From the NCBI RefSeq assembly GCF_024502345.1, contig NZ_JALDNN010000003.1: DNA of 64,000 nt; one strand, 5' to 3'. Within the stretch, counting starts at the first letter, position 1, and the number at the start of each line of letters is the position of its first letter. The notes below the pieces were generated by a model. That model saw nothing but the letters and a program-made list of their open reading frames with translations. It was not told where the DNA came from and searched no databases. The translations under genes and the position numbers were made by a program. This document shows positions 1,572 to 46,647 of this stretch, in pieces. The DNA comes from Escherichia coli. Lineage in GTDB: Bacteria; Pseudomonadota; Gammaproteobacteria; Enterobacterales; Enterobacteriaceae.

Positions 1572-2777
1572 TCATGCCTGGCCCTTGTTCTGCTTTTCAG
1601 CATGTTTACGCAGGTACTGCGTCAGATCGCCGTGAGCTTCACAAATGGCATTCATCTCGTCATTGGTCAGCACCAGAGTGTAAGTATCGTCGCTGAGGTT
1701 CTTAGCGGCCCGTTGTTTAGCTTCTTCCGCAATACGCGAAAACAGCGGGATTGCCGTGTCCGCAATCGTCGTCACGGTCTTTTTGTTCAGTACGCTGGAG
1801 ACCGACACAGCTTTAGGCTCTGGCGTTTTGACCGGGTCTTTCATCTGCGGTGCCGGGGTCCTTTCCGGGGTCGGCTCCGGGTTAGTGCCCGCACTCCCGT
1901 CCACCAGCTGCGGTGGGGTGGTCTCATCGTTAGTACCTTCGCCGGACGTTTGTTCAGTCACGGTGGTTTCCGGGGGGGTCGCATTTGCGTCCGGCACGAT
2001 GGCTGCTTTCGGCTTCATCGCTGCATCAATGTTGCCAGCTTTGACGAATTTCAGGGTTTTGGCCGTCGCCTTACCATAAACATCAATGGCTTTGGTGATG
2101 TTGTTGACCGCTTCATCGCCGCTGTAAAGGTATTCATCCAGCGCGACATACATACTCACTTCACCCTTCACCAACATGGCCTGGAGGGCTTCAGGCAGAT
2201 CCAGGACGCGAACCATCTGACGCAGGTGCTGTTCGGTTTTACCGCGACGCTTCGCCAGTTCAGCGAACGTTTTGGGTTCTTCCGCGTCTTCAACCATCCG
2301 TTTGATGGAGAGCGCCTCAGCTACGACAGACAGAGCCAGATTTGAGTTACCGTCCAGCGTAAACTGCTCGGCACTGGCGCGGCTACCGCGAAACTCCTCG
2401 CATCGAATTAACGTGATCAATTCACGCCCTTCATCTGCCAGCTCGATGTTTGCCATCGCGACGGCACGGATACGGCATGCTCCCTGGCGCAGGACCGGAC
2501 GGCCATTCAGAATCTGTACGACAATAGCTTGTACGCTTAAAGGATCGATCTTGTAGGACTCTTTCAGGCTGTTCAGGTGGGCTACCACGTCAGGTAATGA
2601 GTAGTAACTCTCCCCAATGCCAGCAGTACGGGTGTTAAACCCCTCTTCCTCTTCGACCACTGCCGGGTTAATGACTAGACCATTGCTTTTGCGTGCGCCG
2701 TTACCGGTACGCTCCAGGTAGGTGCGCAGGCTGATATCGTTGTTAGCGGTTTTTACATCATTTTCGACAGTGGACAT
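1572..2777 (-). CDS. ParB/Srx-fold (KorB-like) DNA-binding protein, paralog 1, 401 aa
   Basis: GFNTR...YYSLPDVVAHLNSLKESY...RQGACRIRA (ParB box-like GxxR region) followed by an HTH-like segment. It is clearly homologous to the ORFs at 41183-42346 and 45571-46647. No ParA gene is adjacent. Confidence 0.8.
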   Translation of the reverse strand: MSTVENDVKTANNDISLRTYLERTGNGARKSNGLVINPAVVEEEEGFNTRTAGIGESYYSLPDVVAHLNSLKESYKIDPLSVQAIVVQILNGRPVLRQGACRIRAVAMANIELADEGRELITLIRCEEFRGSRASAEQFTLDGNSNLALSVVAEALSIKRMVEDAEEPKTFAELAKRRGKTEQHLRQMVRVLDLPEALQAMLVKGEVSMYVALDEYLYSGDEAVNNITKAIDVYGKATAKTLKFVKAGNIDAAMKPKAAIVPDANATPPETTVTEQTSGEGTNDETTPPQLVDGSAGTNPEPTPERTPAPQMKDPVKTPEPKAVSVSSVLNKKTVTTIADTAIPLFSRIAEEAKQRAAKNLSDDTYTLVLTNDEMNAICEAHGDLTQYLRKHAEKQNKGQA

Positions 2778-2826
2778 GGTGCCTTCCTTTTAGTTTTCGT
2801 TTAGGGTGTTTGTTCGCTACAAAACA

Positions 2827-2862
2827 ACAATACCAGGTTCGATTCATTTCCTAATAACCTGA
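2827..2862 (-). promoter_or_regulatory. putative sigma70 promoter of the TTATTAG family (TCAGGTTATTAGGAAA - N - TATTGT)
   Basis: The sense-strand motif TCAGGTTATTAG is shared with five other sites. There is a 16-nt spacer to a -10-like TATTGT, about 45 nt upstream of the ParB-like-1 start. Confidence 0.45.
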
Positions 2863-2866
2863 GGCG

Positions 2867-2887
2867 AAAAAAAAGTAACTTTTTTTC
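2867..2887. promoter_or_regulatory. expanded variant of the GAAAAGTWACTTTTC box (G-A8-GTAAC-T7-CC)
   Basis: Near-perfect palindrome centred on GTAAC, about 95 bp upstream of the ParB-like-1 start. Confidence 0.5.
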
Positions 2888-2986
2888 CGGGGGTTATAGT
2901 ACGCGATCCGTCCGTTTTAAATTCTCGCTAAGGAGGGCAAATTTCACTTTAGTGTGAAAAGCGGGTACATAAAGCAGGAATATGTC

Positions 2987-3001
2987 GAAAAAGTTACTTT
3001 C
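2987..3001. promoter_or_regulatory. GAAAAGTWACTTTTC-type box (2 mismatches) with a CCCGGTTGCC extension
   Basis: The sequence gaaaaagttactttcccggttgcc has the same right-hand extension as the box at 20951. Confidence 0.5.
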
Positions 3002-3567: not shown

Positions 3568-3606
3568 CTAAAGGTGCCATTAGCTTGCTGGCCCACATTC
3601 TGAAAT

Positions 3607-9546: not shown

Positions 9547-9561
9547 GAAAAGTAACTTTTC
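9547..9561. promoter_or_regulatory. perfect GAAAAGTWACTTTTC box
   Basis: Reads GAAAAGTAACTTTTC. Intergenic, about 200 bp upstream of the 9347 start. Confidence 0.6.
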
Positions 9562-15274: not shown

Positions 15275-15739
15275 TTAATCGGGTTGTGACTTATCATTTT
15301 CTCCAACCGAAGTGCTGTCGAGAAATGACCATTCTTGTTTGGGGCTTTTATATAATGCACTAGCCTCAGTACTCATCCACGACTCACAGGCTTTATAAGT
15401 CATGCCTTCCTCTCTAACGCGGTCCTTAAAATACGCCCAGGCTTGCAGATCAAGCGGCTGATACTCTTTCAGCGACTGGTCAAGCCTTTCCTTCCAGATT
15501 TTCTTCCGATGAGTAAAATGAGGAAAAGCCAGGAATGCATAACTACCTGCAACAAAAAAAAAGAACAGGAGTCCGCCCCATAGAGAATGTTTGAAAAACA
15601 CCAGTCCTGGGAAAATCCATGCCACAATGGCAACAAATAAAAGAAGGTGCTCCTTCCCAGTAGGTTTATTAAAATGCCAGGAAATTGCAATACACTTTAA
15701 TTTACTAAAGTGATTTTGTTTCTCCTTAATATCGGTCAT
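15275..15739 (-). CDS. membrane protein, 154 aa
   Basis: AAGGA RBS, and two hydrophobic helices in the N-terminal half. Confidence 0.6.
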   Translation of the reverse strand: MTDIKEKQNHFSKLKCIAISWHFNKPTGKEHLLLFVAIVAWIFPGLVFFKHSLWGGLLFFFFVAGSYAFLAFPHFTHRKKIWKERLDQSLKEYQPLDLQAWAYFKDRVREEGMTYKACESWMSTEASALYKSPKQEWSFLDSTSVGENDKSQPD

Positions 15740-15784: not shown

Positions 15785-15799
15785 TAAAAGTTACTTTTC
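15785..15799. promoter_or_regulatory. GAAAAGTWACTTTTC box (1 mismatch, TAAAAGTTACTTTTC)
   Basis: 46 bp upstream of the 15739 start and 120 bp downstream of the dndC-like stop. Confidence 0.55.
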
Positions 15800-15921: not shown

Positions 15922-18297
15922 TCACGCCAGCAGGCGGACCATACGTTTCAACAGAGGCCTTAACAACGCCGCCGTCCTCTCCCGGCATTCATCCACATGC
16001 CGGAACCCCGTCTTTTTCGAAGACTGGGGGCCGGATAACATCCGCAGCTCCCAGATGACTTCCCGTAAGGTTCCTTCGCGCTCCGGCGAAATACACCCGG
16101 CTAATGTCTCCAGAAAGCGTTTTCTTACGGCCCGGTAATACAGACGTTCTTCCGGTTGCTGTGACGAAATCCGCAGGTTACAGAGGGTCAGGACAGCGTC
16201 AAGAGTCCTTGCCTTCAGTTCGTCTCCCGTCCGGGCCAGATGTAGCTGTTGTTCTGTCTCCAGTTGCGTCGTTATCCACCCCCCCAGAGGGGTTTTGTTG
16301 TAGGTGTGCAGTGCCACACAGGCCGCAACACAACACCAGAAGCGCAGTTTCTGCCGCTGCCCCCGCAGTTTGCGGGCTACGAGCAAGCGATAATCGCTGT
16401 CGGTCAGGATCTTGAAACGGCGGCTGGCGAGCAGAGACGGCAGCGGCGTCTGGTCGTTAATGCCAAGACGTGAATAGGCCTGCCCGCGTTGAGCGAGTCG
16501 ATGGTACACCGCACCTTTCCCCCGCGAAATTCGGACGGCGCCGTATCTAAGCAGGTACTGTGCCGCCGCCACAGGGGTAAACTCACCGTCAGACACACGC
16601 TGGCGTAATCCGTCATATTCATGCCAGATAATCCAGGATGCCGTGTCTTCATCGACCGTCAGCTCATCCTCTTCTTCGAATGCAACGATGTTCAGGCCTT
16701 CCCCGCTACTCATCAGACTGCGGGAAGCTCGCTCATCCTCCCGACCGTCAAAATAGGCTATTTCGGATGACGGATCGGACAGCCCGTCAAATGACGTCCC
16801 GATACGGCCTTCCGGCAACTTCATCCAGCGTGGTGCTGGCATCGGCGTGCGGGGTACTGGTTGCATAGCTGGCTCATCGTCGAGAAGATCCAGTGCCCCC
16901 CCTTCCCACACCTGGCGGTAAAGTTCAATGGCACGAAATGGGCGCGGGTTAAAGCAATGCAGTGACCAGAGAAAGTCGATATGCAGCACGTTAGCCTCCT
17001 GCACCAGTCGAAACTGCGGCTCCGACATGCGGCGGTTATGCGCGGTATCTTCGATCTCGCCTGAAAGTAACTTTTCATGCACCGCTGCGGCCCGCTGAGC
17101 CTCCACGTAATCGAGGCTGCAACAGATATGGAACAGTCTTTCGGTCAGGGACGACGAGAACACATTGGGCTGAAGACGCACATACCCGCCCTCAAACACT
17201 TTGCGTCCGATATAATCCCGAAGGCTCCAGTCGTACTGAATTTTGGTCAGGAAACGCTGAAGGCGGTTGAGACCAGCCTGGTAGCCGTACTTCTCAGGGT
17301 CAGTGCGGAGTAAGGTTTCCATCGAGTGATCAATGCCGACGGCGCAGCATAGCGAGCATCCATAGCGAGCGCCGCAGGCAGAAGACCGGACAGTGGATTT
17401 CTCCGGCGTCCAGATACATTCCCCGGTCGCGTCTTTGTAAAGCGTGGCGAGGCTGAAGTTGTCCGGCAAAAAGCTTGGCAGCGGAAATCGCGCCAGAGAA
17501 CCACAGGCCATCAGAAATGACCAGATATCCTGTGCCCGCCACTCTTTCACCGGGTACAGTTCGCCGCCGTGCTCCGTGAGCGAGACGCTGTCCGCCTGCC
17601 CGCCCATTCTTAGGATGTTGTCTGCCCGACGGGCGCTCTCATCATCGCGGGAACCCAGCATCAGGCACACTTTGTTGCGGACAGAAGCAGGTGCATTTTT
17701 CAGATAACGGGCTTTGGCCTGGCGCAGTGGAGAACGCTTTAGATCTGTAGCGCATTGACGCGTAGAAGAATTTGTCCAGGTTGGAAGTCCACGCCCGGTC
17801 AGAATGCGTCCGACCCAGCTCTGGGTCATGGACGGGCGGGCCACAAGGACGGTCAAAGGCAGTTCTTGTTCGGCAATAAAGGCTCTGAGCTGGCTGAGAA
17901 CCTGCGTGGCCTGATGATGCATCTCAGGGTTTTCAATCAGGGTGTCAGACATCTGAATGAAGTGGTGCTGGCTGACGTTCGACCCGTTTCGTACTGCACG
18001 GATCAAGGCCATAAGGAACAAGTGCAGTAGCGAGTGAGAGTCTTTCCCGCCGCTGTAGCCGACGCACATGGTCCAGCCTTCGGTAATCGCATGATAAATG
18101 GCACTGGTTGCCGTCGTCACGCGCGAAGCGAGACTGATCGGCTCACCGGCATCAGTATAATTCAGATCCGCATCGGTCTTCAGTGTCTGCCAGACATCGC
18201 CCCATTTATCCTGCGTCAGAATGGCAGCGTTAGCCGCCTCAGAAAATTGAATTTCTGAGGGTAATTCAAGGAATGTTTCTTTCATTTCGATATACAT
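15922..18297 (-). CDS. DndC-like PP-loop ATP pyrophosphatase (PAPS-reductase superfamily) with a long unknown C-terminal extension, about 791 aa
   Basis: PP-loop motif CVGYSGGKDSHS plus the cysteine cluster CGARYGCSLCCAVGIDHSME, as in DndC. The start is set at the ATG 6 nt after AGGA; the track ORF starts at 18351. Confidence 0.7.
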   Translation of the reverse strand: MYIEMKETFLELPSEIQFSEAANAAILTQDKWGDVWQTLKTDADLNYTDAGEPISLASRVTTATSAIYHAITEGWTMCVGYSGGKDSHSLLHLFLMALIRAVRNGSNVSQHHFIQMSDTLIENPEMHHQATQVLSQLRAFIAEQELPLTVLVARPSMTQSWVGRILTGRGLPTWTNSSTRQCATDLKRSPLRQAKARYLKNAPASVRNKVCLMLGSRDDESARRADNILRMGGQADSVSLTEHGGELYPVKEWRAQDIWSFLMACGSLARFPLPSFLPDNFSLATLYKDATGECIWTPEKSTVRSSACGARYGCSLCCAVGIDHSMETLLRTDPEKYGYQAGLNRLQRFLTKIQYDWSLRDYIGRKVFEGGYVRLQPNVFSSSLTERLFHICCSLDYVEAQRAAAVHEKLLSGEIEDTAHNRRMSEPQFRLVQEANVLHIDFLWSLHCFNPRPFRAIELYRQVWEGGALDLLDDEPAMQPVPRTPMPAPRWMKLPEGRIGTSFDGLSDPSSEIAYFDGREDERASRSLMSSGEGLNIVAFEEEDELTVDEDTASWIIWHEYDGLRQRVSDGEFTPVAAAQYLLRYGAVRISRGKGAVYHRLAQRGQAYSRLGINDQTPLPSLLASRRFKILTDSDYRLLVARKLRGQRQKLRFWCCVAACVALHTYNKTPLGGWITTQLETEQQLHLARTGDELKARTLDAVLTLCNLRISSQQPEERLYYRAVRKRFLETLAGCISPEREGTLREVIWELRMLSGPQSSKKTGFRHVDECRERTAALLRPLLKRMVRLLA

Positions 18298-18473
18298 ATT
18301 ATTTCCTGAATTTGGCTTTCGCTGTATTGTCGCGATATTTATTAAATCCATTTAATATCTTCAGCGCAATATGTGAAGCTAAAAATAGTTAAATTGAAAT
18401 CATGCCAATTTAATTAAATAACACTGAACAAATAAAATTACGCGGCAATAAATATATTATGTTCTCCACGCTC

Positions 18474-19774: not shown

Positions 19775-19961
19775 TGCATAACTCCTTATTTAATTAAATG
19801 TGATTGCTGTCTGTGAATAGATAATATCAAAACAGATACCTGCACCTAATAACCAATAATGAAATATGTTCGAAATTTTTATAGAGCAGACAGCGCCATA
19901 TTTAATAATCCAACTTTTATTCTGGATACGGTGTAAAATAAATATACGGGAAAACAAAAAA

Positions 19962-19976
19962 CCGCCACAAGGGCGG
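19962..19976 (-). terminator. rho-independent terminator
   Basis: CCGCC-ACAAG-GGCGG hairpin followed on the minus strand by TTTTTTGTTTT, downstream of the 20002-20265 gene. Confidence 0.55.
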
Positions 19977-20001
19977 AATTTATTAGACGGGAAAGATTTG
20001 G

Positions 20002-20265: not shown

Positions 20266-20321
20266 TTTTCTCCGCCTTCAATTTTTAAATTTGTCAGTTC
20301 TGCTACGTGTAAAAAACAGCA

Positions 20322-20654: not shown

Positions 20655-20693
20655 ACTATTAACCTCGACCGTCAGTTGGGTTGCTGTAGGGAT

Positions 20694-20950: not shown

Positions 20951-20965
20951 GAAAAGTTACTTTTC
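20951..20965. promoter_or_regulatory. perfect GAAAAGTWACTTTTC box with a CCCGGTTGCC extension
   Basis: The sequence is GAAAAGTTACTTTTCccggttgcc, and the site is intergenic. Confidence 0.6.
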
Positions 20966-24661: not shown

Positions 24662-24676
24662 GAAAAGTTACTTTTC
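24662..24676. promoter_or_regulatory. perfect GAAAAGTWACTTTTC box
   Basis: Reads GAAAAGTTACTTTTC, about 70 bp upstream of the 24747-24778 promoter candidate. Confidence 0.6.
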
Positions 24677-24778: not shown

Positions 24779-24807
24779 GTTCTCATTCAAAAAGAGGAGA
24801 ACTAACC

Positions 24808-36153: not shown

Positions 36154-38610
36154 TTACTTCAGTTCCTCTATATTCAGCATAAATTCAGAAGTTCCAACGA
36201 CGCCGGAAGTCGAAGGAAAAATAGGGAAGCTGCGGCTGTCACCCAGACCCAGATCCAACTGAACATTTTTGCTCTCCCCAGGAGCTGCGGAAACCCCATT
36301 CACCGTGACGCCGAAGGTTGCATCCTTACGCACCGTCAGTATCGCGTCCTGTTTCCCGGTTGCGATAGACCCGTCCTTCTTACGCAGCTGGCTGGCATAA
36401 AGAACCGCCAGCGGTGTGTCATCGGACGTTTTCAGCGCGGTACTAACGGAGATGGTCTTAAGGTTTTCCAGACGAACCAGGTTGTTCGGCAAGTAACTAA
36501 ATTCGACGGCGCTTTCTTTAACGTTGTTCATCTCGTCTTTGGCCTGCACGGTAAGCGTGTAAGTTTCGCCGTCGTTAAGTGAAGGAAAGATCTTCGGGTA
36601 ATTCGGGGCATAAAGATTATTTCCGAGGTTTACCCACGACAACTCAACAGCATCAGATACCGGGCCACCGCGAAGCGTCATTCGCGTTAAAGAGGGCTTG
36701 GTCAGGGTATCTGCGAGCTGAATACGAATGTTCTCCAGTCCATACACCGTTACACTGCTGGTGATAGGTTTGGTTTCGTAGCTGATACTGATGGACGGCG
36801 GCGTGTTATCGACCGTCACAGTCTTATAGTCCAGACTACCCGTATTGTTGAACGAATCCTGGGCGTTGAGCTGCACGTTATAGCTGCCCTCCGGGATTAG
36901 TTTCAGGTTGAACTCGTATGTATAATTCCCGGTTGCTGTGTTACGCCCCGTTAGTGTTCCGGTCACATTGATATCCGCGTTATTGCGGGATTTGTCGGAC
37001 AGCCACACCCGGCTCAGTTTAACGGTATCGAAATACGATCCGTCTCCCGGCTGGTTGATGTAAACCTGAAGGATGTTGGTCGTATCATTGTAGTCATAGC
37101 CAGTGACCGAAGGCCCCAGCGTATGCCAGACGACGTTTTCCCAGATAGGCATGAAGAAGGTGGATTCTGTTGTGGAACGTACCTCATAACCACTATGCAG
37201 ATAGCCGGTGGTGCCGTTTGTAATCGCCTGTGTCAGGGCGACGGTACACGACGTTGACCCGGCAGGGATGTTGCAGGTGGCACCGCCAGTAATTTTTTGG
37301 TCGTAGGGCCTTGCCTGCACATTGAAACGGATCTTGGTCAGGTTCACCGGCATATCTGAAGCCTTGAAGTATTTCCAATTGACGCTGTTAAACCAGGTAC
37401 CATCGGACATCTGTCGCTCAATCGCCGGACTCCCCCATGCAGGACTTTTTACCGAAGCCGGGTCCCAGTTCAGCCAGGAGGCGTATTGCGTCAGATCGCC
37501 TCCGGACCATTGGTACGTGTTCACTGGGCGATAGTAGTTTATATCCAGAGCGCCCTGGGGAAGCTTCACCTCGACGTACACATAGGTCGTGTCTTCTGAA
37601 ATAACCTGAGCACCGCCATAATTGTTAAGAATGGTGATGCCGCCGTTACGGTATGGCTTCCAGTTGGTTCGGGGGATACGGATGACCATACGGTATGGGT
37701 TTTCGAGTACAGATAGCCCCCGAACAAACGGGACGTACCCTGAAGAGATCCCCGGGACCACACTCGTACTGACGCGTGAGTCATGAACCGCAAAGGGGGT
37801 GTATTCACCTATCTGGTCATCAAATAAAAAGCGCTGCGGCGGAATATTCAGCGTGTTTCCGGCTTTATCTGTGATGATAAAATTGAAGGTAAATTCTTCA
37901 TTGAGATCGCTGGTGGGCATACCGGGTTGAGTGACCGCGTCCTTGATCCAGGGGTAAAAGGCACGTTTTGCCGCCGTATCGTAACTGAGTGTGTTGTCGG
38001 ACACGACTGTGCCATTTCCGCGCTTGATGACCAGACGGATCTTGTCTATGCCATTCGCATCATCAACTCCATCAGCAAAGATGGAAAACTGGCCAGATCC
38101 TCCGCGCCCAAGCCCCCAAACTGGCCCACTCAGGACCATTTCATAGCCTGCGTTCTGGCTCGGGTAGATGCTGGTATACTTTGGCGCTGTAGTGTCGATT
38201 GTGAAATGATACGTTGAAGAGCTGACGACAGCCTGCTGGAGATCCAGGGTATCGTTGATGACGGTGAAGGCCCCTTCACCGAGTGCGGGTAACGCCAAGT
38301 CCTTTCCGTAATATTCCGTGCCGTCTGCGGCAACAATGCGATCTGCGACGCTTATCTTTCCTGTCACTGCGGAATACATGACCTTTTTGTCACTGTCCCT
38401 GGTCACACTCACTCGTTCGTATCGGTCAAGGCCGGAGATCAGATTCAGGGTCATTGTGCTTGCCGGATTAAGGTAGCTCTGCGTGGCAGGCTTAAGCGTC
38501 TTTGCCAGCTGATTGGTGTCAGTATACGAATAGCTGAAAATCTGAGCCGCCGCCGGATAAACTGAAGCTATGGCCGTGGCAATGATACAGCCTGTCAGAA
38601 TTTTACGCAT
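36154..38610 (-). CDS. large secreted bacterial Ig-like (Big) domain protein, 818 aa (RSP-family)
   Basis: Start at MRKILTGCIIATAIASVYPAAAQ (GGGAG RBS; the track ORF starts at 38658). Paralog of 28876-31260. Confidence 0.8.
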   Translation of the reverse strand: MRKILTGCIIATAIASVYPAAAQIFSYSYTDTNQLAKTLKPATQSYLNPASTMTLNLISGLDRYERVSVTRDSDKKVMYSAVTGKISVADRIVAADGTEYYGKDLALPALGEGAFTVINDTLDLQQAVVSSSTYHFTIDTTAPKYTSIYPSQNAGYEMVLSGPVWGLGRGGSGQFSIFADGVDDANGIDKIRLVIKRGNGTVVSDNTLSYDTAAKRAFYPWIKDAVTQPGMPTSDLNEEFTFNFIITDKAGNTLNIPPQRFLFDDQIGEYTPFAVHDSRVSTSVVPGISSGYVPFVRGLSVLENPYRMVIRIPRTNWKPYRNGGITILNNYGGAQVISEDTTYVYVEVKLPQGALDINYYRPVNTYQWSGGDLTQYASWLNWDPASVKSPAWGSPAIERQMSDGTWFNSVNWKYFKASDMPVNLTKIRFNVQARPYDQKITGGATCNIPAGSTSCTVALTQAITNGTTGYLHSGYEVRSTTESTFFMPIWENVVWHTLGPSVTGYDYNDTTNILQVYINQPGDGSYFDTVKLSRVWLSDKSRNNADINVTGTLTGRNTATGNYTYEFNLKLIPEGSYNVQLNAQDSFNNTGSLDYKTVTVDNTPPSISISYETKPITSSVTVYGLENIRIQLADTLTKPSLTRMTLRGGPVSDAVELSWVNLGNNLYAPNYPKIFPSLNDGETYTLTVQAKDEMNNVKESAVEFSYLPNNLVRLENLKTISVSTALKTSDDTPLAVLYASQLRKKDGSIATGKQDAILTVRKDATFGVTVNGVSAAPGESKNVQLDLGLGDSRSFPIFPSTSGVVGTSEFMLNIEELK

Positions 38611-38785
38611 GTGATACTCCCGGGATGTATTTGCCCCTATTTTACGAAATCTTTTCACCTGGGCTTGCTGGTTAGCCGGGGTATTTCACGGCATAAAACT
38701 TTTAAATGTTGCCGTGATAGCAATGTTGTCGGGTCAGAACAAAACGAAAGTTAAGGCAACTTCAACAGGGCTGATTACGGTGGAA

Positions 38786-38800
38786 GAAAAGTAACTTTTC
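38786..38800. promoter_or_regulatory. perfect GAAAAGTWACTTTTC box
   Basis: Reads GAAAAGTAACTTTTC, about 175 bp upstream of the Ig-like gene start. Confidence 0.6.
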
Positions 38801-39055: not shown

Positions 39056-39232
39056 TTAGCTTTCAAACCAGGGCGAATCGGCAGAGTTCGCAGATTCTTC
39101 ACTTTGCTGTGACTCCCCCAGAAATTGCACTTCACGTACTGGTTTACTTTTCCCCAGGCTCCGCTGGAAATCATCCATCACAAACTCAATATCATCACGG
39201 TCCTCAGGCAAGACAGGCGAACTTTTGGACAT
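39056..39232 (-). CDS. possible small acidic protein, 58 aa (below the ORF-track cutoff)
   Basis: My own translation is MSKSSPVLPEDRDDIEFVMDDFQRSLGKSKPVREVQFLGESQQSEESANSADSPWFES. AAGGAAAG RBS. It starts 14 nt after the methyltransferase stop. Confidence 0.45.
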   Translation of the reverse strand: MSKSSPVLPEDRDDIEFVMDDFQRSLGKSKPVREVQFLGESQQSEESANSADSPWFES

Positions 39233-39246: not shown

Positions 39247-40923
39247 TTAAAAGCGTTCTGCATACAGAACGCGGACGGAGACGGCAGTGTTGTCAAACTC
39301 ATTATCGAAGGTATCCATCCACTCGGTCCTGAACCCCTCGCCCAGCAGGTTATCGATCCCCTGAAGGGACAGAGGCAGGACGGCAGCTAAACGCCCGCCG
39401 GGAACCAGATGAGACGCAGCGGCCAGCAGATGCAGCTTAGCCCGGTTGTCAGCAAAAGGAGGGTTCATCACCACGCAATCAAATTTCTGAATCTGATTCG
39501 CCGCCGACCAGGCCAGAAAATCGGCTTCCGTGGTCTCGTAACCTTTAGCCCGGGAGACCAGACAATTCAGTGTATCCAGTTCGATGCCGGTTACGTTGAC
39601 ACTTTTCGGGAAACATTGAAGCAAATCCCCGTGCCCAATATTGGGCTCCAGCAGCCGTTCCCCCTCCCCGGCCGCAATAATGGATGCGACGTATTCACTG
39701 AGTCGCGCCGACGACGGATAAAACTGGTGGGATTTAATATCAGGCATGGCGCCCATATGTCCGATGAAGCGCATCACTTCGGTCGGGTCATAATCAAACG
39801 TCACATGGTAGCTTGTCACTCGGGCACCGAGAAATCGCAGAACATCCGCGTTCACCTGCCGCGTTTTATCAGCGTTCTCACCGGCATAGCCGAGCGATGT
39901 CCAGCTGGACCATTCCTTTTCATTCTGGGTAAAATCCAGCTCTGCAAGCTGCATCCGTGAATGAAAATCGATGCAGCGTTTCAGTGCCGGGAACTCCTGC
40001 AACGTCGCTTTGGTATGGGCCACGCGTTCAGCAGGCAGAGCCAGAGGGACGATGGCAGCAAGAATGTTGTTAAGCCGTTCGGCGATATCAGGATGCACAT
40101 CAATGTGCATCGATCCGTTTTTGTAGACCCGAAAACGAATACTGTTGCCATCCAGGCTGATCCAGTTTCTGAATCCAACATGACCAACCATATTCTCAAC
40201 CATTTTTTTCGTGTCATAGACCGGTTTAACTGTTTCGCCCCGGAAATAAGAACAGATCACCCGCAACTCCGAAAGTGGCATGAGGCCGGATTCTTTAAAC
40301 TCAACCTTCAGTTTTACCCATTTGTCTTTCACGCCTTCACATACGCCGGAGGTGATCATGCGAGTAGAGAAGCCAAATGCTTTATTGGTTTTGTGTTGAC
40401 GGCTTAATGACTGAAAGACGGCATAGACACGATCTTTAATGAACTGATGCCGGTCATTGAGCAACGCGACAACCGTGGTAACAACAGCATCGAGTGTAAA
40501 ATCAGGGATCTCCTGAGGAGGAAGGTGGTAACGGTCAGCAGTAAACTGCTTATCCCATTCTTTCTTCTTTTCGTCAGACATCACAGACAGTACATCGGTC
40601 AGGGCCATGACCCTCTTCCAGTATTCTGAACGCAGCGCGTTTTCTGCGTAGCTGGCATCCGCTTCTGAAATGAGATGATTGTATCCGGAGAGGTATGAAT
40701 AGAGCTTCTGATTCCCGCATTTCAGGAACTGAGCGGACATGGACCTCAGTAAGCTAAGCTCATCGTTATATGATTCGACCTGCCTGTTAATGACATCGAG
40801 CTCTTCCCGCATTTCGGGCAGGAAGTTATCGTCGTTAATAAGGAGGCCAGTATGAGGCATATAAGCAACCAGAGAACTCCCAGGGGCACCCATTGGCAGG
40901 GAATCAGATTCAACAGCAGACAT
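39247..40923 (-). CDS. N6-adenine DNA methyltransferase with a long N-terminal domain (DUF4942-like architecture), about 558 aa
   Basis: The C-terminal region has an AdoMet motif I-like LEPNIGHGD and catalytic VMNPPF. The start is set at the ATG 9 nt after AAGGA; the track ORF starts at 41001. Confidence 0.75.
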   Translation of the reverse strand: MSAVESDSLPMGAPGSSLVAYMPHTGLLINDDNFLPEMREELDVINRQVESYNDELSLLRSMSAQFLKCGNQKLYSYLSGYNHLISEADASYAENALRSEYWKRVMALTDVLSVMSDEKKKEWDKQFTADRYHLPPQEIPDFTLDAVVTTVVALLNDRHQFIKDRVYAVFQSLSRQHKTNKAFGFSTRMITSGVCEGVKDKWVKLKVEFKESGLMPLSELRVICSYFRGETVKPVYDTKKMVENMVGHVGFRNWISLDGNSIRFRVYKNGSMHIDVHPDIAERLNNILAAIVPLALPAERVAHTKATLQEFPALKRCIDFHSRMQLAELDFTQNEKEWSSWTSLGYAGENADKTRQVNADVLRFLGARVTSYHVTFDYDPTEVMRFIGHMGAMPDIKSHQFYPSSARLSEYVASIIAAGEGERLLEPNIGHGDLLQCFPKSVNVTGIELDTLNCLVSRAKGYETTEADFLAWSAANQIQKFDCVVMNPPFADNRAKLHLLAAASHLVPGGRLAAVLPLSLQGIDNLLGEGFRTEWMDTFDNEFDNTAVSVRVLYAERF

Positions 40924-41182
40924 AGCACCAGTCCTTTTTGAAGGGTTTATCTGATACCAGGATAACAACCTTGAACAAAAAGCTAATAGGTTGGCTGACA
41001 TGAAAATGGAGAAATTAACACTGCGGAAAGTCAGAAAGACAGATGTGGTTTTAATCAGAAGAAACGGGCCGGAGACAGGACAAAAAAACCCCTACATAGT
41101 AGGGGCAACGGGGGGAGAGCCTGGGTGGCTCGCTCTAAAATATCGTACTTCTTATTGTAGGCTTCTCACACTCTGAAATAAT

Positions 41183-42346
41183 TCATTTAAGCCTGTGCTG
41201 GGGGGGGGGGGCGGATTGCGGTTCTCCGCCATTTTTATCGTTTTTCTTGGTTTTGTAAGTCACTTTTTCCCCTTTCAATCGGGCTTGCCGATTTTCGGCC
41301 CGGCGAAGCTGCTTGTTTTCTGATTCCGTAATCTCACTTTGCAGGTTCTTGAGCATCTCCAACATGCTCCGGTTCAGCGTAAAGGTAATTTCTTCATCTT
41401 CGCTGGAGTCGGTCACCTCCGGCAACTCGATATCACCGAGTTTCTGCAATAGACTCGTCGTAATGAGTTTGACCCCTTCGACGGCTTTTGTAGCGAGAAC
41501 TGGTGGAACACGTGCGGGTTTAAAATCGGAAGGGACAACACGGATCTGCCCGCGTGGCGTTTTCTTAATCTGGATACCGCTTGAATCAGCCTTTTCAAGG
41601 TCTGCGATCATCTTTTCGATCCGCGCAACAGCTTCCGTTTCACCGAACTCATCGATAAGGGACAGGACTGCTACATAGGAAATGGCATCGGCATGGATCA
41701 GTTTTTTGAGATAGACACAGCAGCCGGTCAAGCGAATAAGAGCAGCAATGGTGGTATTACTTTTTCCCTCACGTTCGGCAATACGGTCAAGCGACCATCC
41801 ACCCAGCGCCTGAAGACGTCGGTAGGATTCACCCAAAGCCACAGGAGAAAGAGCTAGGCCACGGTTTCCGTCAATCGTTGTCAGTTCGCAGCTGATCTCA
41901 TCGGCTTTCATCTCGATGCAAAGAATGGTGAGGTTAGAATGCCCTTCTGCCACAGCCATCAAAGCAGCCTTTAAACGGCAATGTCCCTGGCGAACGTACG
42001 GAATGCCGTCTTTGATCAGAACGCGGATAGGGTCTACGTAATCACCCCGGATGTACGCATTCTTGATGTTATTGAGATGATCGGCGACTTCTGGCAACTG
42101 GTAATAAGCTTCCCCCATTCCCATCTCACGGGAGTTGAATCCTTCCGTGATTTGAACCACGGTTGGGCTGATAGCCCATGCTTTCTGTTCAGTGACTTCA
42201 TTACAAAGGTCAGGGTTCGCGTCGCGGAACTGCTTCATACCACTGACGAATCGGCCGGAACCGGTCACTGTTGAAAAAGACACGAGTGGGGATTTAAAGA
42301 CCCGTGAGTTAGTTTGCTGTTGGGAATCAGTCATCAGATCACTCAT
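41183..42346 (-). CDS. ParB/Srx-fold (KorB-like) protein, paralog 2, 387 aa
   Basis: GFNSREMGMGEAYYQLPEVADHLNNIKNAY...RQGHCRLKAA plus an HTH-like region. Homolog of 1572-2777 and 45571-46647. Confidence 0.8.
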   Translation of the reverse strand: MSDLMTDSQQQTNSRVFKSPLVSFSTVTGSGRFVSGMKQFRDANPDLCNEVTEQKAWAISPTVVQITEGFNSREMGMGEAYYQLPEVADHLNNIKNAYIRGDYVDPIRVLIKDGIPYVRQGHCRLKAALMAVAEGHSNLTILCIEMKADEISCELTTIDGNRGLALSPVALGESYRRLQALGGWSLDRIAEREGKSNTTIAALIRLTGCCVYLKKLIHADAISYVAVLSLIDEFGETEAVARIEKMIADLEKADSSGIQIKKTPRGQIRVVPSDFKPARVPPVLATKAVEGVKLITTSLLQKLGDIELPEVTDSSEDEEITFTLNRSMLEMLKNLQSEITESENKQLRRAENRQARLKGEKVTYKTKKNDKNGGEPQSAPPPQHRLK

Positions 42347-42705
42347 AGATACTCCGTTGAATTCTTTTTTGTCATACCTTTCATCTGTGCGTGAATACTA
42401 CCGGAAAAAAAAATCTCACTTTTTCGTTAAAAAGGTACTTTTTGGGTCTATTCCGAATTGAACGAGGAAAATTGTTCTGGCGATCAGAACAAAAAGAAAA
42501 AATAAATCAAATAAAACAGATGGTTATGGTTAATTCGTAAAGGATAAACTTTTTTCTGAGAAGTGAAAAAAAATTAAAAAATGTGTCGAAATGACAATCT
42601 CGTTAACAAAAGCCACGTTTTTTCCTGCTCATACCTTATTGGTAGCAATCCGCCTTTCGGTACCATAAGTGTGGCATACCGATAAAGCTGAACGGAGAAG
42701 ACTCG

Positions 42706-43530
42706 TTGCGAAAACATACACCAATCATCAAATGGGCGGGGGGTAAAACCAAACTGATGCCGTTCCTCAGTAAGCACTTCCCACATGATAAGAGCCGACG
42801 CTGGGTTGAACCGTTTATCGGCGGTGGCGCCGTGTTTCTGAACATGTTTGCCACCGAGGCTCTCCTGGCAGACAGCAACCCGGACCTAATCAATCTGTAC
42901 CGCAACATACAGCGAAATAAACCGGCATTCATCAGAGAAGTGCAGCTGCTGGCGGAAAGGCATTTTGAAGAAGAGGATTACTACGTGCTGCGGAATACCT
43001 TTAACAGCACCAGTTTTGATGATGCCCCGCTACAACGAGCAGCCATTTTCTACGCGATGAATCGACTCGGATATAACGGTCTGTGTCGTTACAACTTGAA
43101 GCGAAAGTTCTCAGTTCCATGGGGAAAGCGATACCAGTTCAGTCTGGATATCCAGAAGGTTGATTACCTCTCATTCAGGCTTTCGAGCGTTGAATTGAAA
43201 ACCGCAGATTTTGGTCAGACGCTGGAGTTTGCAGGTGGTGGTGACCAAATATATTGCGATCCGCCATATGACAAAATCAGTAAAACCAGCTTTGTAAGCT
43301 ATGATGGTATACCGTTCGATAAGAGCGCACATGTTAAACTGGCGGATATGCTGGTGGATGCTAATCGTAAAGGGGCCTCAGTGGCCATATCCAACAGCAT
43401 GACTCCCTTTACGCTGGAGCTCTATGAAGAACGCGGTTTTGATATTCATACTCACAACGCTTATCGGTCTGTCGGCAGTCAATCAAAGTCGCGTAAGAAG
43501 GAAATAGAAATTCTGGCCGTCCTTCGTTGA
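42706..43530 (+). CDS. dam: Dam-family DNA adenine methyltransferase, 274 aa
   Basis: PIIKWAGGK near the N-terminus and the catalytic DPPY. TTG start 9 nt after GGAG. Confidence 0.85.
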   Translation: MRKHTPIIKWAGGKTKLMPFLSKHFPHDKSRRWVEPFIGGGAVFLNMFATEALLADSNPDLINLYRNIQRNKPAFIREVQLLAERHFEEEDYYVLRNTFNSTSFDDAPLQRAAIFYAMNRLGYNGLCRYNLKRKFSVPWGKRYQFSLDIQKVDYLSFRLSSVELKTADFGQTLEFAGGGDQIYCDPPYDKISKTSFVSYDGIPFDKSAHVKLADMLVDANRKGASVAISNSMTPFTLELYEERGFDIHTHNAYRSVGSQSKSRKKEIEILAVLR

Positions 43531-43544: not shown

Positions 43545-44366
43545 TTAGTCGATCGGGCTTATCCATTCCTCGAAGCTCAGCACTTCGGAATGGTCACGGC
43601 TGGCATAGGGAATAAACTGAAGCTCTTCAATTGATCGCTCCCCTCTCTTACCTTCGCATATAAACGATATGAACCCCTGATCTGCAAGTTGGGTAAGGAC
43701 ATTCATGATTCGTACGTTCACTGTATGCAACTGAAGATCATTCACGATATCGGTAATTTTGTGTGAATGGCGCCGGGACTTTCGCAAATAATCAAAGATG
43801 ACAAACTGGGCATTCCGTCGCTTCAATAATTTTTCCGTCATAAATTCCTGAATTAATCCCCCCAGCAACATCAGGAACGGACGAAGTACCCCAGGGAACG
43901 TTAACGTATAAGACTGCGATGTTTTGACCAGAGTGAAGGACGTCAGGAAGCTGAAGTTTAGTCGCTTCTTTGAATACGGGACATAAACAGCCAATGTCGT
44001 AGACAAGTAAGTAAGCAATTCTTCCAGATGAGCGCGTGTGATCATGACCGTCTTATCGCTATTACGAAGACCGTGATAATCAATAAATGCCACTCTGGCA
44101 CGACTCAGCCACTCGTGAATGCTTATGGATACAGTGAACGGTGCGTTTTCATCGGCAGAAATGACGCCGTGCTCAGCGAGTTGGTTATGGATAAGCATAG
44201 ACAGCTGGTAAAATGGAAAACGGCAGGATGGATGACACTGTAGGCCAGTTAGCGTTAGCTTTGCATTATCCAAGTCATCGAGCGGAAAAGTAACTTTTCG
44301 GGAAATAATTTTTGCTGACGTTCTTGCTGACTTGCGGATGAACCCAAGTCCAAGATCATTTTGCAT
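43545..44366 (-). CDS. hypothetical protein, 273 aa
   Basis: GGAG RBS 7 nt upstream of the ATG. It contains a perfect palindromic box in codons 23-27. Confidence 0.6.
   Translation of the reverse strand: MQNDLGLGFIRKSARTSAKIISRKVTFPLDDLDNAKLTLTGLQCHPSCRFPFYQLSMLIHNQLAEHGVISADENAPFTVSISIHEWLSRARVAFIDYHGLRNSDKTVMITRAHLEELLTYLSTTLAVYVPYSKKRLNFSFLTSFTLVKTSQSYTLTFPGVLRPFLMLLGGLIQEFMTEKLLKRRNAQFVIFDYLRKSRRHSHKITDIVNDLQLHTVNVRIMNVLTQLADQGFISFICEGKRGERSIEELQFIPYASRDHSEVLSFEEWISPID
44285..44299. promoter_or_regulatory. perfect GAAAAGTWACTTTTC box, intragenic
   Basis: Reads GAAAAGTAACTTTTC, 67 nt inside the 273-aa ORF. Confidence 0.5.
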
Positions 44367-44648
44367 ATATCACTCCGTTTTAACAAAATCTCCTTAACCT
44401 ATATGTTAAGAAGAGACAAAAAATTAAAAAATATAATTAATAAGATTATCATTTTTAATTTAAAAGATTAGTTAATAACGGGTGTTGAATTTAAAATAAA
44501 TCGGCTTATTTTCGGAGTGTAAAACCGGGTAAAAACCCGATGCGTGAGCAACAGATTTGACGTGAGTGAGTCGGCACGACAGTGCAGAAAGCCGGTGGCT
44601 AATGTAAAAACGGCCTGTATTTGGGAGTTCCGGTCACTAGACACCAGG

Positions 44649-45356
44649 CTATGCTGTTAATTTAAACACAGTCAGTAATGCGTAGGGCACTGAGTCAAAG
44701 TAGTGGATCTTTCTCACTTTTCCCGAAAGATGATAGCTATGCCCCAATAAAACGTGATCCTGAACATTACCAGTCAACGCGAATCCATCATTCTGCTTTT
44801 TGCCTGTAAAAGTAAAAAAATAGCTATGAGAACCTTTTGAAAACGCAGCTCGCACTTCTGTAAAAATAATATCAAAACTAACTACATCACCAATGTTGAA
44901 AGAATGTTCAATTGGAAAACCGGCGTTTTCTGAAAAAGCTTCAGAAACAGGCTGGTATGTCGAGTAGAAAGACTCCAACTGACGGACTGTTAAAAAGAGA
45001 TTGTTGTTTAACTGCTGTGCAATGCTTGCTGCAAACTTAGAATTGTCAGCTTGCAGCAATGCTAACTGCTCGCTGTGCCTACGTTTCCAGGCTTCAAGAT
45101 CGGGATTGCAGCGAAGTTCCGGGATAGTTTCAAGGAATTCAATGCACTCTTTCAGTACCAGCTTTTCCTCTGTGGCTGGAGACGTTTTGGAGCCATTGCA
45201 TGTCACACAGACGGCGTTCGCAATCTTTCCAGTCCCTCCGCATTCAAAGCACTCACGGGTGATAACGGCGTAATAGTGTCCATCTTTACCGTAGATAGGC
45301 TTTACGGATGATGGCAGTAAATAACCATCCTGAGTAAAAAAAAGAGAATGTTTCAT
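44649..45356 (-). CDS. protein with a DnaJ-type zinc-finger pair, 235 aa; paralog of 23481-23948
   Basis: Contains CFECGGTGK...CVTCNGSK. 4-nt overlap with the upstream 66-aa ORF. Confidence 0.6.
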   Translation of the reverse strand: MKHSLFFTQDGYLLPSSVKPIYGKDGHYYAVITRECFECGGTGKIANAVCVTCNGSKTSPATEEKLVLKECIEFLETIPELRCNPDLEAWKRRHSEQLALLQADNSKFAASIAQQLNNNLFLTVRQLESFYSTYQPVSEAFSENAGFPIEHSFNIGDVVSFDIIFTEVRAAFSKGSHSYFFTFTGKKQNDGFALTGNVQDHVLLGHSYHLSGKVRKIHYFDSVPYALLTVFKLTA

Positions 45357-45553
45357 TTTTTAAGGTTCTCCAGTCGAGCCTCCACGAGCTGTAAAGCGTC
45401 AGTTACCTTCTGTACGTATTGATCGTGCCCTTCTTCAAAATGATCAAAACGCTTTCCAGCCTTGATCTCTTCAATGTTGCGATCGAGTGTGCCTTTTGTA
45501 ATAAGTAGATCGTTATAAGTATTAATTACAGTAAACTGTGCAATCTTGTCCAT
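45353..45553 (-). CDS. hypothetical protein, 66 aa
   Basis: Lies between the ParB-like-3 and zinc-finger genes on the same strand, with tight spacing. Confidence 0.5.
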   Translation of the reverse strand: MDKIAQFTVINTYNDLLITKGTLDRNIEEIKAGKRFDHFEEGHDQYVQKVTDALQLVEARLENLKK

Positions 45554-45570
45554 AAACGGTCCTTAGCATT

Positions 45571-46647
45571 CTACTCACTTGTTAACAGGTCACGAATTTC
45601 ATGCAGTTCTGTAACCTTAGATTTTGGAATGATGATAGCAGTATTTTCATCATTCAGAAGGCTTAATAAAAGCTGGAGTTTTGCTTCATCTAGAGTGATC
45701 TTTACACTTTCCGTTGTCTTTGTGATGGAAGTGCTGCTGATGTTCGTAAATAAATTGGAATGTTGTCCGTCGAAAATTAATTCGGTGAGTTTATTACTGT
45801 CGTTTAGTGCTGGCCGTACAGTATCAATCAGCCCGATAAATTCAGTTTTTAAGCGTTCAGTTTTTTTATGAGAAAGCCGTTTAATACCCAATGAACTGCG
45901 AGTGATGGATTTTGTTTTAACTTCCTTAGGAATAACATGAACAGGGAGTGTTTCCGGGTTATCTAGTTTCTCATCGTTTGATGATGTTTGAACGCTTGAT
46001 GTCTTAGATAAAACAGGTTCTGGTTCAGTTGATGGTACTAAAAGAGAACACGATTCCAAATGTGCAAGGACTTTTGCATGGTCATTGGAATACTTCAACA
46101 TGATCTCAATCGCGAGTGTTTTTTTAATCAGGTTTAGACTGATTAAACGTTGTAGTTCTAAAGGCATATCAAGGATTTTAAGCTGGTTACGAATAGCAGT
46201 GCTAGACCGTTGATAGCGCATAGCAAGGGATTCAACGGTAGAGCCAAGCTTCAGCGCCTCTGCCAGTGCATAAGCTAAGGCTACGGGATTAAGACCGTTA
46301 TTCCTATTCCCATCAAGGTTCTCCAGGTATTCTTCACTTTTATTCTTATAGTTCATAACAACTACTGAAATGAGCTGAATATCAGCTCCTTCCGCAAGAG
46401 CAAGAGATAGTGCTCTGTAACGGCAATGCCCCTGCCTTACAACGTAATTGGAGTCTTTCTTAACAACCTTAATTAAATCGACTCGTCTGCCCTCTTTATA
46501 GGCTTGTTTAATAGAAACAATGGTCGATTTTACTGGTTCCTGTTCATAACAAAGTTCACCAATTACCGCTTCACGTGGATTGAATCCAGATTCGATAAAA
46601 AGTGCTTTAGGACTGATCTCAATAATCTGATAGTCGCAGTGATTCAT
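45571..46647 (-). CDS. ParB/Srx-fold (KorB-like) protein, paralog 3, 358 aa
   Basis: GFNPREAVIGELCYE...RQGHCRYRALSLA plus an HTH-like region. AAGGAGG RBS. AT-rich codon usage, unlike paralogs 1 and 2. Confidence 0.8.
   Translation of the reverse strand: MNHCDYQIIEISPKALFIESGFNPREAVIGELCYEQEPVKSTIVSIKQAYKEGRRVDLIKVVKKDSNYVVRQGHCRYRALSLALAEGADIQLISVVVMNYKNKSEEYLENLDGNRNNGLNPVALAYALAEALKLGSTVESLAMRYQRSSTAIRNQLKILDMPLELQRLISLNLIKKTLAIEIMLKYSNDHAKVLAHLESCSLLVPSTEPEPVLSKTSSVQTSSNDEKLDNPETLPVHVIPKEVKTKSITRSSLGIKRLSHKKTERLKTEFIGLIDTVRPALNDSNKLTELIFDGQHSNLFTNISSTSITKTTESVKITLDEAKLQLLLSLLNDENTAIIIPKSKVTELHEIRDLLTSE

Follow-up and report, generated by a model that had tools for sequence, protein, structure and literature searches.

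Orphan ParB-like paralogs and a dispersed 13-bp palindrome in an IncHI1 plasmid backbone

What are three ParB-like proteins doing on one plasmid if none of them has a ParA partner? This question is raised by a 64,000-nt stretch of DNA from Escherichia coli (assembly GCF_024502345.1, contig NZ_JALDNN010000003.1; the whole stretch is referred to below as the window), which encodes three such proteins, designated here paralogs 1, 2 and 3. The original prediction, made from the sequence, had proposed for them regulatory, silencing or DNA-modification-targeting roles rather than segregation, with the plasmid regulator KorB as the precedent. The three proteins are diverged members of a ParB/Spo0J/Noc-like subfamily found on mobile elements, and a regulatory, KorB-like rather than segregational role is the best-supported reading. 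Furthermore, the plasmid carries a dispersed 13-bp palindrome, AAAAGT-W-ACTTTT. This palindrome is the new element here and was absent from the prediction; orphan ParB proteins on mobile elements and KorB-like regulators were already known.

Three orphan ParB-like genes in the plasmid backbone

All three open reading frames (ORFs) are present as predicted:

1572..2777, minus strand: paralog 1, 401 aa; R0104 of R27 (assigned from the gene order behind flmA R0101); orphan ParB-like
41183..42346, minus strand: paralog 2, 387 aa; R27 R0042; orphan ParB-like
45571..46647, minus strand: paralog 3, 358 aa; R27 R0037; AT-rich orphan ParB-like

The regions of the window at 41-47 kb and ~1.1-3 kb are 99.7-100% identical to the IncHI1 plasmids R27 (NC_002305) and pHCM1 (NC_003384), and the window belongs to an IncHI1 resistance plasmid of the R27/pHCM1 type. 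According to the R27/pHCM1 annotation, the three genes sit in the plasmid backbone. The paralog 3 gene is divergent from repHI1A, the paralog 2 gene is flanked by the genes for a divergent Dam-family methyltransferase and a DUF4942 methyltransferase, and the paralog 1 gene is located ~39 kb away among small hypothetical genes, with a hok-type toxin nearby. RefSeq labels the three products 'hypothetical protein' or 'DNA-binding protein'; R0042 (paralog 2) was a 'partition protein' in the original R27 annotation, as quoted in PMC7366339. The three are indeed strongly diverged paralogs, with a pairwise BLASTP identity of 33-35% over 190-225 aa (E from 1e-10 to 1e-23, with the database size set to 1e9). 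Their G+C contents are 0.546, 0.501 and 0.390 for paralogs 1, 2 and 3 versus 0.476 for the window, which confirms that paralog 3 is AT-rich. A six-frame scan with a hidden Markov model (HMM) of the three proteins found exactly three members in the window and in the whole of R27, and in the same scan the partition ParB of the plasmid was left unmatched.

Two other candidate interpretations were rejected. R27 R0153, a 'partition protein' beside a cytosine methylase that was considered as a fourth paralog, is a thermonuclease-family gene without the ParB fold. The three genes are not pseudogenes or decay remnants either: their ORFs are intact, they are conserved down to 36-45% identity, and two of them are strongly expressed.

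The three paralogs are orphans, distinct from the partition ParB. They are flanked by small ORFs, methyltransferase genes, the gene for a zinc-finger protein and repHI1A, and, as predicted, no parA adjoins any of them, either among the window ORFs or in the R27/pHCM1 annotation. A regular expression for the ParA-interaction motif ([LFI]G[KR]G[LFI]) had no match in the three proteins. The sole parA (type Ia, Walker A KGGTGKST) starts at 62752 and runs off the window edge; its own parB comes next in pHCM1 and R27, in agreement with the prediction that the partition ParA is far off and its ParB past the window. Directly upstream of parA there are 34.6 tandem copies of a 54-bp repeat (60652-62488, also periodic at 266 and 320 bp), which presumably are the centromere of the IncHI1 Par1 system; this array holds no AAAAGT palindrome. 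A repeat array is also present at 59604-59850. In addition, R27/pHCM1 annotation places parM on the plasmid.

The motifs GFN(T/S/P)R and RQG(A/H)CR were verified in the translations of all three paralogs, and the predicted helix-turn-helix (HTH) in the middle of the proteins is of the ParB type, matching Pfam PF17762 (E 1.5e-5, 1.3e-4 and 7e-4, with the gathering score exceeded by paralog 1 only). The Box II-like motifs are as follows:

2472..2489, minus strand: RQGACR of paralog 1, aligning with GERRxR of ParB
41975..41992, minus strand: RQGHCR of paralog 2 (verified translation)
46420..46437, minus strand: RQGHCR of paralog 3 (verified translation)

The cysteine of this G-(A/H)-C-R box is nearly invariant family-wide, and the box resembles the sulfiredoxin active-site motif G-C-H-R with its order permuted.

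Pfam ParBc did not detect the N-domain in the three paralogs or in 102 more distant relatives, and the KorB domain PF08535 had no match in the three paralogs (8 of the 102 distant relatives match); fold membership was therefore taken from profile and structure searches. Searched against PDB sequences, the three-protein profile matched H. pylori and B. subtilis ParB at ~1e-8 over both the N-domain and the HTH, with RQGhCRlrA aligned opposite GERRxRA, and KorB at an E value of 1.4. The profile of the 102 relatives matched Spo0J at 2.8e-18, Noc at ~1e-15 and KorB at 3e-7. The matches to TIGR00180 are all under its cut-off (E 2.5e-8 for paralog 3), and PHROG_1033 ('ParB-like partition protein') matches all three paralogs at 8e-18 (paralog 1) to 4e-30; phage relatives are found in 9NA/Sasha-type and Klebsiella phages. 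No defence-system match to the paralogs was returned by PADLOC. AlphaFold2 models are confident over residues ~60-250 of paralog 2 and 15-250 of paralog 1, i.e., over the N-domain and HTH, and with these models Foldseek retrieved ParB, Noc and KorB at probability 1.0, the best fit of the paralog 1 model being KorB in the KorB-KorA complex (TM 0.63-0.65). Paralog 1 thus consists of a ParB/Srx N-domain, a ParB HTH, a disordered Pro/Thr/Glu-rich linker (~251-325) and two C-terminal helices. These helices (pLDDT 55-75) have no confident fold match; a C-terminal strand-helix sequence pattern is common to the aligned members. Paralogs 2 and 3 follow the same general plan of N-domain, HTH, linker and helical C-terminal part. 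The predicted ParB/Srx fold with a ParB HTH is supported by these searches, which do not place the proteins outside it.

The Asn and Arg of GFNxR and the Gly and Arg of GxCR are invariant across 39 close and 102 distant relatives, so that the GxxR Arg and the Box I Asn/Arg of ParB are kept; this conservation suggests that a switch or clamp dependent on a nucleoside triphosphate (NTP) is retained. Box III of ParB, ENLQR with its catalytic Glu and Asn, is replaced by D-G-N-R/S in the paralogs and by t-S-N-d-G in the wider family. With this E-N pair replaced, NTP turnover may be slow or absent.

Relatives of the three proteins are widespread. Among 1.84 billion representative proteins, 182 clusters were found at E <1e-30, 2252 at <1e-10 and 14270 at <1e-3, where they merge into ordinary ParB. 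PLSDB contains 2384 plasmids with a relative of paralog 1, nearly all of them conjugative; the hosts are IncHI1, IncHI2 (a 65% relative), Klebsiella pNDM-MAR-type (36%) and IncC (~31%) plasmids, and the IncC relative is annotated as 'chromosome partitioning protein ParB'. A scan of genome contigs with the paralog-1 alignment gave 10 loci. Within the IncHI plasmid superfamily, the three genes belong to the backbone. Of the relatives retrieved, the most distant one (P0072, 10001-10894; 34% to paralog 3) is an orphan as well; the large element on which it is located has genes for an MvaT-type (H-NS-like) silencer and for DEAD-box helicases too, and there are no AAAAGT palindromes near it.

A dispersed 13-bp palindrome and its likeliest binder

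The genes for paralogs 1 and 2 share the sequence AAAAAG-N3-CTTTTT ~90 nt before their start codons, and the underlying element is the 13-bp palindrome AAAAGT-W-ACTTTT. The window holds 21 copies with no more than one mismatch, 9 of them exact, versus 0.24 expected from shuffles. R27 holds 26 exact copies, the flanks of which are unrelated; the palindrome is therefore not a repeated mobile element. No other palindrome was over-represented in R27 (arms of 6-8 nt with spacers of 0-4, arms of 7-8 nt with spacers of 0-12), and neither the 11-bp core (AAAGT-N-ACTTT) nor an exact site occurs in the Tn10 and tcu accessory DNA. The R27 sites are enriched between genes (14 of 26 intergenic versus 20.4% background, p = 1.7e-4) and around gene starts, with 18 of 26 between 40 nt inside and 400 nt upstream of an annotated start versus 39.5% (p = 2e-3). 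The sites of the window include the following (no strand assigned):

2871..2883: exact palindrome AAAAGTAACTTTT, 94 nt before the paralog 1 ATG, within a 12-1-12 inverted repeat; candidate operator
2989..3001: one-mismatch site AAAAGTTACTTTC, ~212-224 nt before the paralog 1 ATG
9548..9560: exact palindrome, between genes according to the R27 annotation
15786..15798: exact palindrome, ~50 nt upstream of the 154-aa ORF 15275-15739 (minus strand)
20952..20964: exact palindrome, intergenic
24663..24675: exact palindrome, ~95-140 nt upstream of ORF 24769-25584 (plus strand)
38787..38799: exact palindrome, preceding the Ig-like protein gene 36154-38658 (minus strand)
42429..42443: variant palindrome AAAAAG-GTA-CTTTTT (plus strand), one mismatch to the 13-mer, 83-97 nt before the paralog 2 ATG
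44286..44298: exact palindrome in the 5' end of a 273-aa ORF, position kept in IncHI2-like and Photorhabdus plasmids
49118..49130: exact palindrome with G at its centre, ~290 nt before trhA, with which the AC transfer operon begins
54481..54493: exact palindrome, ~95 nt upstream of htdT

The variant before paralog 2 (AAAAAGTACCTTTTT) reads AAAAAG-TAC-CTTTTT on the gene strand. Two further R27 sites flank the oriT/mobI-trhR region. Paralog 3 has no palindrome upstream, and no conserved inverted repeat was found upstream of paralog-3-type genes or of the IncC orphan.

The positions of the sites are conserved on other replicons. AAAAGTWACTTTT is present ~100-350 nt upstream of every paralog-1-type gene examined in eight lineages, with at least one site each (among them the window, a 91% relative, IncHI2, and relatives of 45% in Buttiauxella, 47% in Leclercia, 46% in Yersinia and 36% in Klebsiella), and the variant CAAAAAGTACCTTTTT is found at -92 to -96 upstream of paralog 2 in three lineages, Photorhabdus and IncHI2-like plasmids included, despite differing flanks. 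IncHI2 has 6 exact palindromes in 41 kb. The distant Klebsiella plasmid has 43 in 200 kb, along with 84 copies of the 11-bp core (5-nt arms); the sites cluster ahead of the paralog-1-type gene (six), the trhA-like operon (four), mobI/oriT (two) and Ig-like genes. In three lineages the palindrome is found at +28 to +34 inside trhH (R27, 111898; L009, 39986; Klebsiella plasmid, 48242), and the site in the 5' end of the 273-aa ORF is likewise kept in three lineages; the positions in the oriT region are also conserved.

Some features of the surrounding DNA were noted as well. On R27, a palindrome copy is located at the start of trhU (9208), where internal transcript 5' ends have been reported (PMC7366339). 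The window encodes two large Ig-like (Big-domain) surface proteins (28876-31260 and 36154-38658) and an 809-aa protein of the PAPS-reductase family (15922-18351), with a palindrome just downstream of the latter gene. Between repHI1A and trhA there are ~12 copies of 43/44-bp repeats (48531-49070), which share AAAGCATTTG with iteron-like repeats upstream of repHI1A (~47060-47125); three of the copies contain the near-palindrome AAAAGTGCCTTTT.

Which protein recognizes the palindrome? The recognition helix of paralog 1, S-E-Q-H-x-R (S-V-T-H-V-R in Klebsiella), is kept wherever the palindrome is kept, and that of paralog 2 is variable; the Klebsiella plasmid has its 43 palindromes yet no paralog 3. 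The KorB operator of RK2 has a 6-1-6 geometry, and AAAAGT-W-ACTTTT has the same geometry. By analogy, the invariable site upstream of the paralog-1-type gene would be the usual signature of ParB/KorB autoregulation. We infer that a paralog-1-type protein is the likeliest binder of the palindrome.

It appears evenly balanced whether or not the orphan ParB-like proteins are sequence-specific regulators or organisers of IncHI backbone DNA in the manner of KorB, with paralog 1 acting on the palindrome. In this mechanism, the paralog-1-type protein would bind AAAAGT-W-ACTTTT as a dimer and, through the site upstream of its own gene, regulate itself; the variant palindrome upstream of paralog 2 would bring this gene under the same control. 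The trhA operon, htdT, the oriT/mobI-trhR region and the genes for Ig-like surface proteins would be the backbone promoter targets, and the protein would retain an NTP-dependent switch or clamp, the turnover of which may be slow or absent. Paralogs 2 and 3, the recognition helices of which differ, probably have different targets. More tentatively, these elements may amount to an undescribed plasmid-wide circuit of the IncHI superfamily (meant here as IncHI1, IncHI2, pNDM-MAR-like plasmids and relatives), in which a paralog-1-type NTP switch on 26-43 palindromes would govern transfer, oriT, surface genes and its own paralogs, with two further specialised paralogs acting on distinct targets. Such a circuit would be an independently evolved, triplicated analogue of KorB control.

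Gene neighbourhoods and competing explanations

The surroundings of the three paralogs comprise:

1225..1506, minus strand: 93-aa ORF that follows paralog 1, without a family match; conserved in IncHI1/IncHI2 only
39056..39232, minus strand: 58-aa acidic ORF (R0044), after the DUF4942 gene
39247..41001, minus strand: DUF4942 + N6-adenine methyltransferase (NPPF; R0043; 584 aa), syntenic neighbour of paralog 2
41088..41106, minus strand: terminator-like hairpin + T-run between paralog 2 and the DUF4942 gene
42706..43530, plus strand: adenine methyltransferase of the Dam family, D12 class (R0041), divergent from paralog 2
43545..44366, minus strand: 273-aa conserved hypothetical ORF (R0040), in the syntenic block
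44649..45356, minus strand: 235-aa zinc-finger protein, DnaJ CXXCXGXG-like (R0039), 4-nt overlap with the 66-aa ORF
45353..45553, minus strand: 66-aa ORF (R0038), 17 nt after paralog 3; conserved partner

At the left window edge, ~180 nt past the 93-aa ORF, an ORF for an IS903/IS5-family transposase was seen (74-1042).

The ORFs downstream of the paralogs (93 aa; NPPF methyltransferase and 58 aa; 66 aa and zinc finger) are all as the prediction had described them. Its claim that each paralog is the first gene of a short operon holds for paralog 3, which is packed tightly with the 66-aa ORF and the zinc-finger gene (17-nt gap, 4-nt overlap) in an arrangement syntenic in four plasmid lineages. 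It does not hold for paralog 2, where a spacing of 181-260 nt to the methyltransferase gene contains the hairpin (41106-41088) and expression drops, nor for paralog 1, where expression drops and the neighbour is unconserved. The expression values are those of published R27 arrays (PMC7366339 and its supplement), in which R0104 was equated with paralog 1 by gene order only. At 25 C/37 C, paralog 2 reaches 6132/2278 units versus 217/394 for the methyltransferase, being ~28-fold above this downstream gene and 2.7-fold higher at 25 C, and paralog 1 reaches 2196/2155 versus 207/295 for the 93-aa ORF (PMC7366339). Both rank among the most highly expressed R27 genes, in contrast to paralog 3 (100/106), its 66-aa neighbour (not expressed) and the zinc-finger gene (166/239) (PMC7366339). 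Transcription of paralog 2 thus appears to be uncoupled from that of the DUF4942 gene. All three paralogs are up in an htdA mutant at 25 C (PMC7366339); as 139 of 181 expressed genes rise too, this response is not specific.

The description of three separate modules was overstated, as paralogs 2 and 3 share one conserved backbone block. In an IncHI2-like plasmid the whole block is syntenic (paralog 3, the 66-aa ORF, the zinc-finger gene, the 273-aa ORF, dam, paralog 2, the DUF4942 gene and the 58-aa ORF); in a plasmid with only 44-50% protein identity it is kept as far as the DUF4942 gene, without the 58-aa ORF after it. A Photorhabdus plasmid keeps the order with an insertion sequence (IS) inserted; no dam was called there between the 273-aa homolog and paralog 2, and DUF4942 is fragmented with paralog 2 intact. 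The Klebsiella plasmid has the paralog-1 and paralog-2 types only, and no methyltransferase adjoins its paralog-2 homolog.

Several observations weigh against the KorB-like reading with paralog 1 on the palindrome. Homologs of HtdA, TrhR and TrhY co-occur with the palindrome, the Klebsiella plasmid included, and since the site-bearing plasmids share these proteins too, co-occurrence cannot tell the possible binders apart. A similar helix, S-x-E-H-V-R, is present in the IncC orphan, yet the IncC plasmid is without the AAAAGT palindrome. About 40% of the palindrome sites are intragenic. The residues of ParB for hydrolysis of cytidine triphosphate (CTP) are not kept, so a CTP clamp is not assured, and the array evidence for paralog 1 rests on the gene-order assignment of R0104. 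Furthermore, 11 of the 13 matches among viral contigs with site pairs are one enterobacterial prophage lineage (IMG/VR; L020, 9521-9630; also L011, L014, L016-L018, L021 and L023), in which three AAAAGTWACTTT sites are spaced 48 bp apart and interleaved with AAAAGTGTTTT; this array lies within a long stretch of non-coding DNA, and the gene for a 264-aa distant ParB-like protein (VAGRQR) is 2.2-3.3 kb away. In metagenomes a family member was found at 8 of 120 site-pair loci, all of them IncHI-like plasmids or the same prophage lineage. Hence the site-pair scans of viral contigs and metagenomes yielded no independent protein-site association.

The IncC plasmid NZ_CP021551, in which the orphan relative (19944-20882) is followed by a methyltransferase gene, has a palindrome of its own. 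Seven perfect copies of the 14-bp core TTTCACATGTGAAA are present in 40 kb (at 290, 3874, 4333, 9648, 12984, 24028 and 27442), six of which extend to CTTTCACATGTGAAAG; one TTTCACATGTGAAA copy is located ~60 nt upstream of an operon of parA and a KorB-domain parB. This suggests a KorB-like regulon in IncC.

Could the palindrome belong to another IncHI factor, i.e., TrhR/TrhY, HtdA or an unrecognised regulator, which would also control paralogs 1 and 2, the ParB-like proteins acting elsewhere? We consider this somewhat unlikely. It would agree with the presence of HtdA, TrhR and TrhY homologs alongside the palindrome in the Klebsiella plasmid, with palindromes around oriT and at three transfer promoters (AC, H and R), and with the IncC orphan that has a similar recognition helix but no palindrome; the published derepression of 139 of 181 expressed genes in the htdA mutant (PMC7366339) would also fit a plasmid-wide site. 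However, TrhR/TrhY activate the F-operon promoter (PMC7366339), and this best-documented target of theirs is without the site even at two mismatches, as is the AN promoter. Furthermore, TrhR, TrhY and HtdA have no recognisable DNA-binding domain, and the most constant site position, upstream of paralog-1-type genes with the six-site cluster in Klebsiella, is typical of ParB/KorB autoregulation.

The paralogs might instead be accessory centromere-binding or DNA-compacting proteins with the palindromes as parS-like loading sites for positioning or segregation, regulation being a by-product. Their overall architecture is canonical for ParB, the Klebsiella sites cluster beside the paralog-1-type gene, many sites are intragenic, R0042 was called a 'partition protein' in the original R27 annotation, and expression on the R27 arrays is very high (PMC7366339). 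Nevertheless, this explanation appears improbable: the paralogs have neither a ParA partner nor a ParA-binding motif, parAB with its centromere of 54-bp repeats, and parM as well, are already on the plasmid, and the palindromes are enriched at promoters. The lack of a ParA partner and motif, together with the separate centromere at parA, makes the predicted non-partition role plausible.

An anti-silencing function by analogy to VirB, in which one or more paralogs would bind upstream of AT-rich promoters, relieve silencing by H-NS/Sfh-Hha and aid the thermoregulation of transfer, is quite improbable. IncHI plasmids encode H-NS and Hha homologs, H-NS has been reported to silence transfer at 37 C, palindromes precede start codons by 100-300 nt, the expression of paralog 2 is 2.7 times as high at 25 C, and VirB is itself an orphan ParB-like CTP switch (PMC10770331); the expression of paralog 1, however, is temperature-independent.

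Finally, the idea that the paralogs target or regulate the neighbouring DUF4942 and Dam methyltransferases, as a split ParB-methyltransferase fusion with an anti-restriction or establishment role, is highly improbable: despite the adjacency of paralog 2, DUF4942 and divergent dam kept in IncHI1, IncHI2-like and a more distant plasmid, the methyltransferase gene after the IncC orphan, and the phage fusions of ParB-fold and methyltransferase domains described as common (PMC12704722), it is opposed by the hairpin and 28-fold expression drop after paralog 2, by the fragmented DUF4942 beside an intact paralog 2 in Photorhabdus, by the Klebsiella paralog-2 homolog with no adjacent methyltransferase, and by the lack of a methyltransferase beside paralogs 1 and 3. 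The methyltransferase link, which the prediction had included, is therefore the weak part of its functional proposal.

Comparison with known systems

IncHI1 and IncHI2 plasmids are vehicles of multidrug resistance in typhoid Salmonella and of mcr-1 in E. coli, and HtdA, TrhR/TrhY and H-NS account for only part of the temperature dependence of their transfer. The strictly conserved palindrome, present around oriT, at promoters of transfer genes and ahead of paralog genes, points to a concrete candidate for a missing global regulator. If this is true, these plasmids would provide a well-defined plasmid example, with a candidate DNA site, for the newly recognised class of orphan ParB-fold NTP switches. 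Our literature search, of incomplete coverage, returned no paper on the ParB-like genes of IncHI plasmids or on the palindrome in this context.

From a canonical partition ParB the paralogs differ in lacking ParA and the ParA motif and in their altered Box III. Chromosomal ParB/Spo0J and Noc are their best sequence and fold matches, with the same domain order and with the GxxR Arg and the Box I Asn/Arg kept, and Noc provides a precedent for a ParB paralog acting without ParA on dispersed palindromes. In contrast to these proteins, the paralogs are plasmid-borne and have no ParA-binding motif, stay under the cut-off of TIGR00180, have an N-domain missed by Pfam ParBc, and carry G-H/A-C-R instead of G-E-R-R in Box II and D-G-N-R/S instead of ENLQR.

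SopB of the linear prophage N15 uses dispersed centromere sites that also affect gene expression, and it works with SopA. Like SopB, the paralogs are proteins of the ParB type on a replicon with scattered palindromic sites instead of one centromere, whereas they have no ParA, and the sites are far more numerous (26-43).

VirB of the Shigella virulence plasmid is an orphan ParB-like anti-silencer with a CTP switch that counters H-NS (PMC10770331). As proposed for the paralogs, it is an orphan, plasmid-borne ParB-like regulator with inverted-repeat sites upstream of promoters on an H-NS-controlled plasmid, but its sequence and fold are P1 ParB/VirB-like, which those of the paralogs are not. A 2025 survey in PNAS (PMC12704722) reports that orphan ParB-fold proteins on plasmids and prophages lack the ParA motif and that some of them bind CTP, ATP or GTP. 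The paralogs resemble the proteins described there in being encoded outside a parAB operon, in having no ParA motif and in keeping the fold and HTH. Neither IncHI plasmids nor a target site are mentioned in the passages of the survey consulted, whereas the plasmid described here has three paralogs and, dispersed over it, a candidate site.

The functional parallel proposed for the paralogs is KorB of RK2/RP4, a CTP-dependent global repressor of the ParB family that acts on 13-bp OB operators (TTTAGC-S-GCTAAA) at 12 sites. The dispersed palindrome lends the KorB-like idea indirect support. The paralogs are not of the KorB family proper: they have no PF08535, and the family profile is closer to chromosomal ParB/Noc (3e-7 for KorB versus 3e-18 for Spo0J). 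IncC/ParA is not encoded next to them, and nothing KorA-like was recognised in their neighbourhood, a distant KorA analogue not having been searched for. There are three of them per plasmid and not one, and KorB also serves partition, whereas the paralogs have no ParA. What they have in common with KorB is the ParB/Srx N-domain followed by an HTH (TM 0.63-0.65 for the paralog 1 model); their plasmid, moreover, carries a dispersed 6-1-6 palindrome of 13 bp, a candidate operator, found at promoters, at a distance from them, inside genes and upstream of paralog 1 itself.

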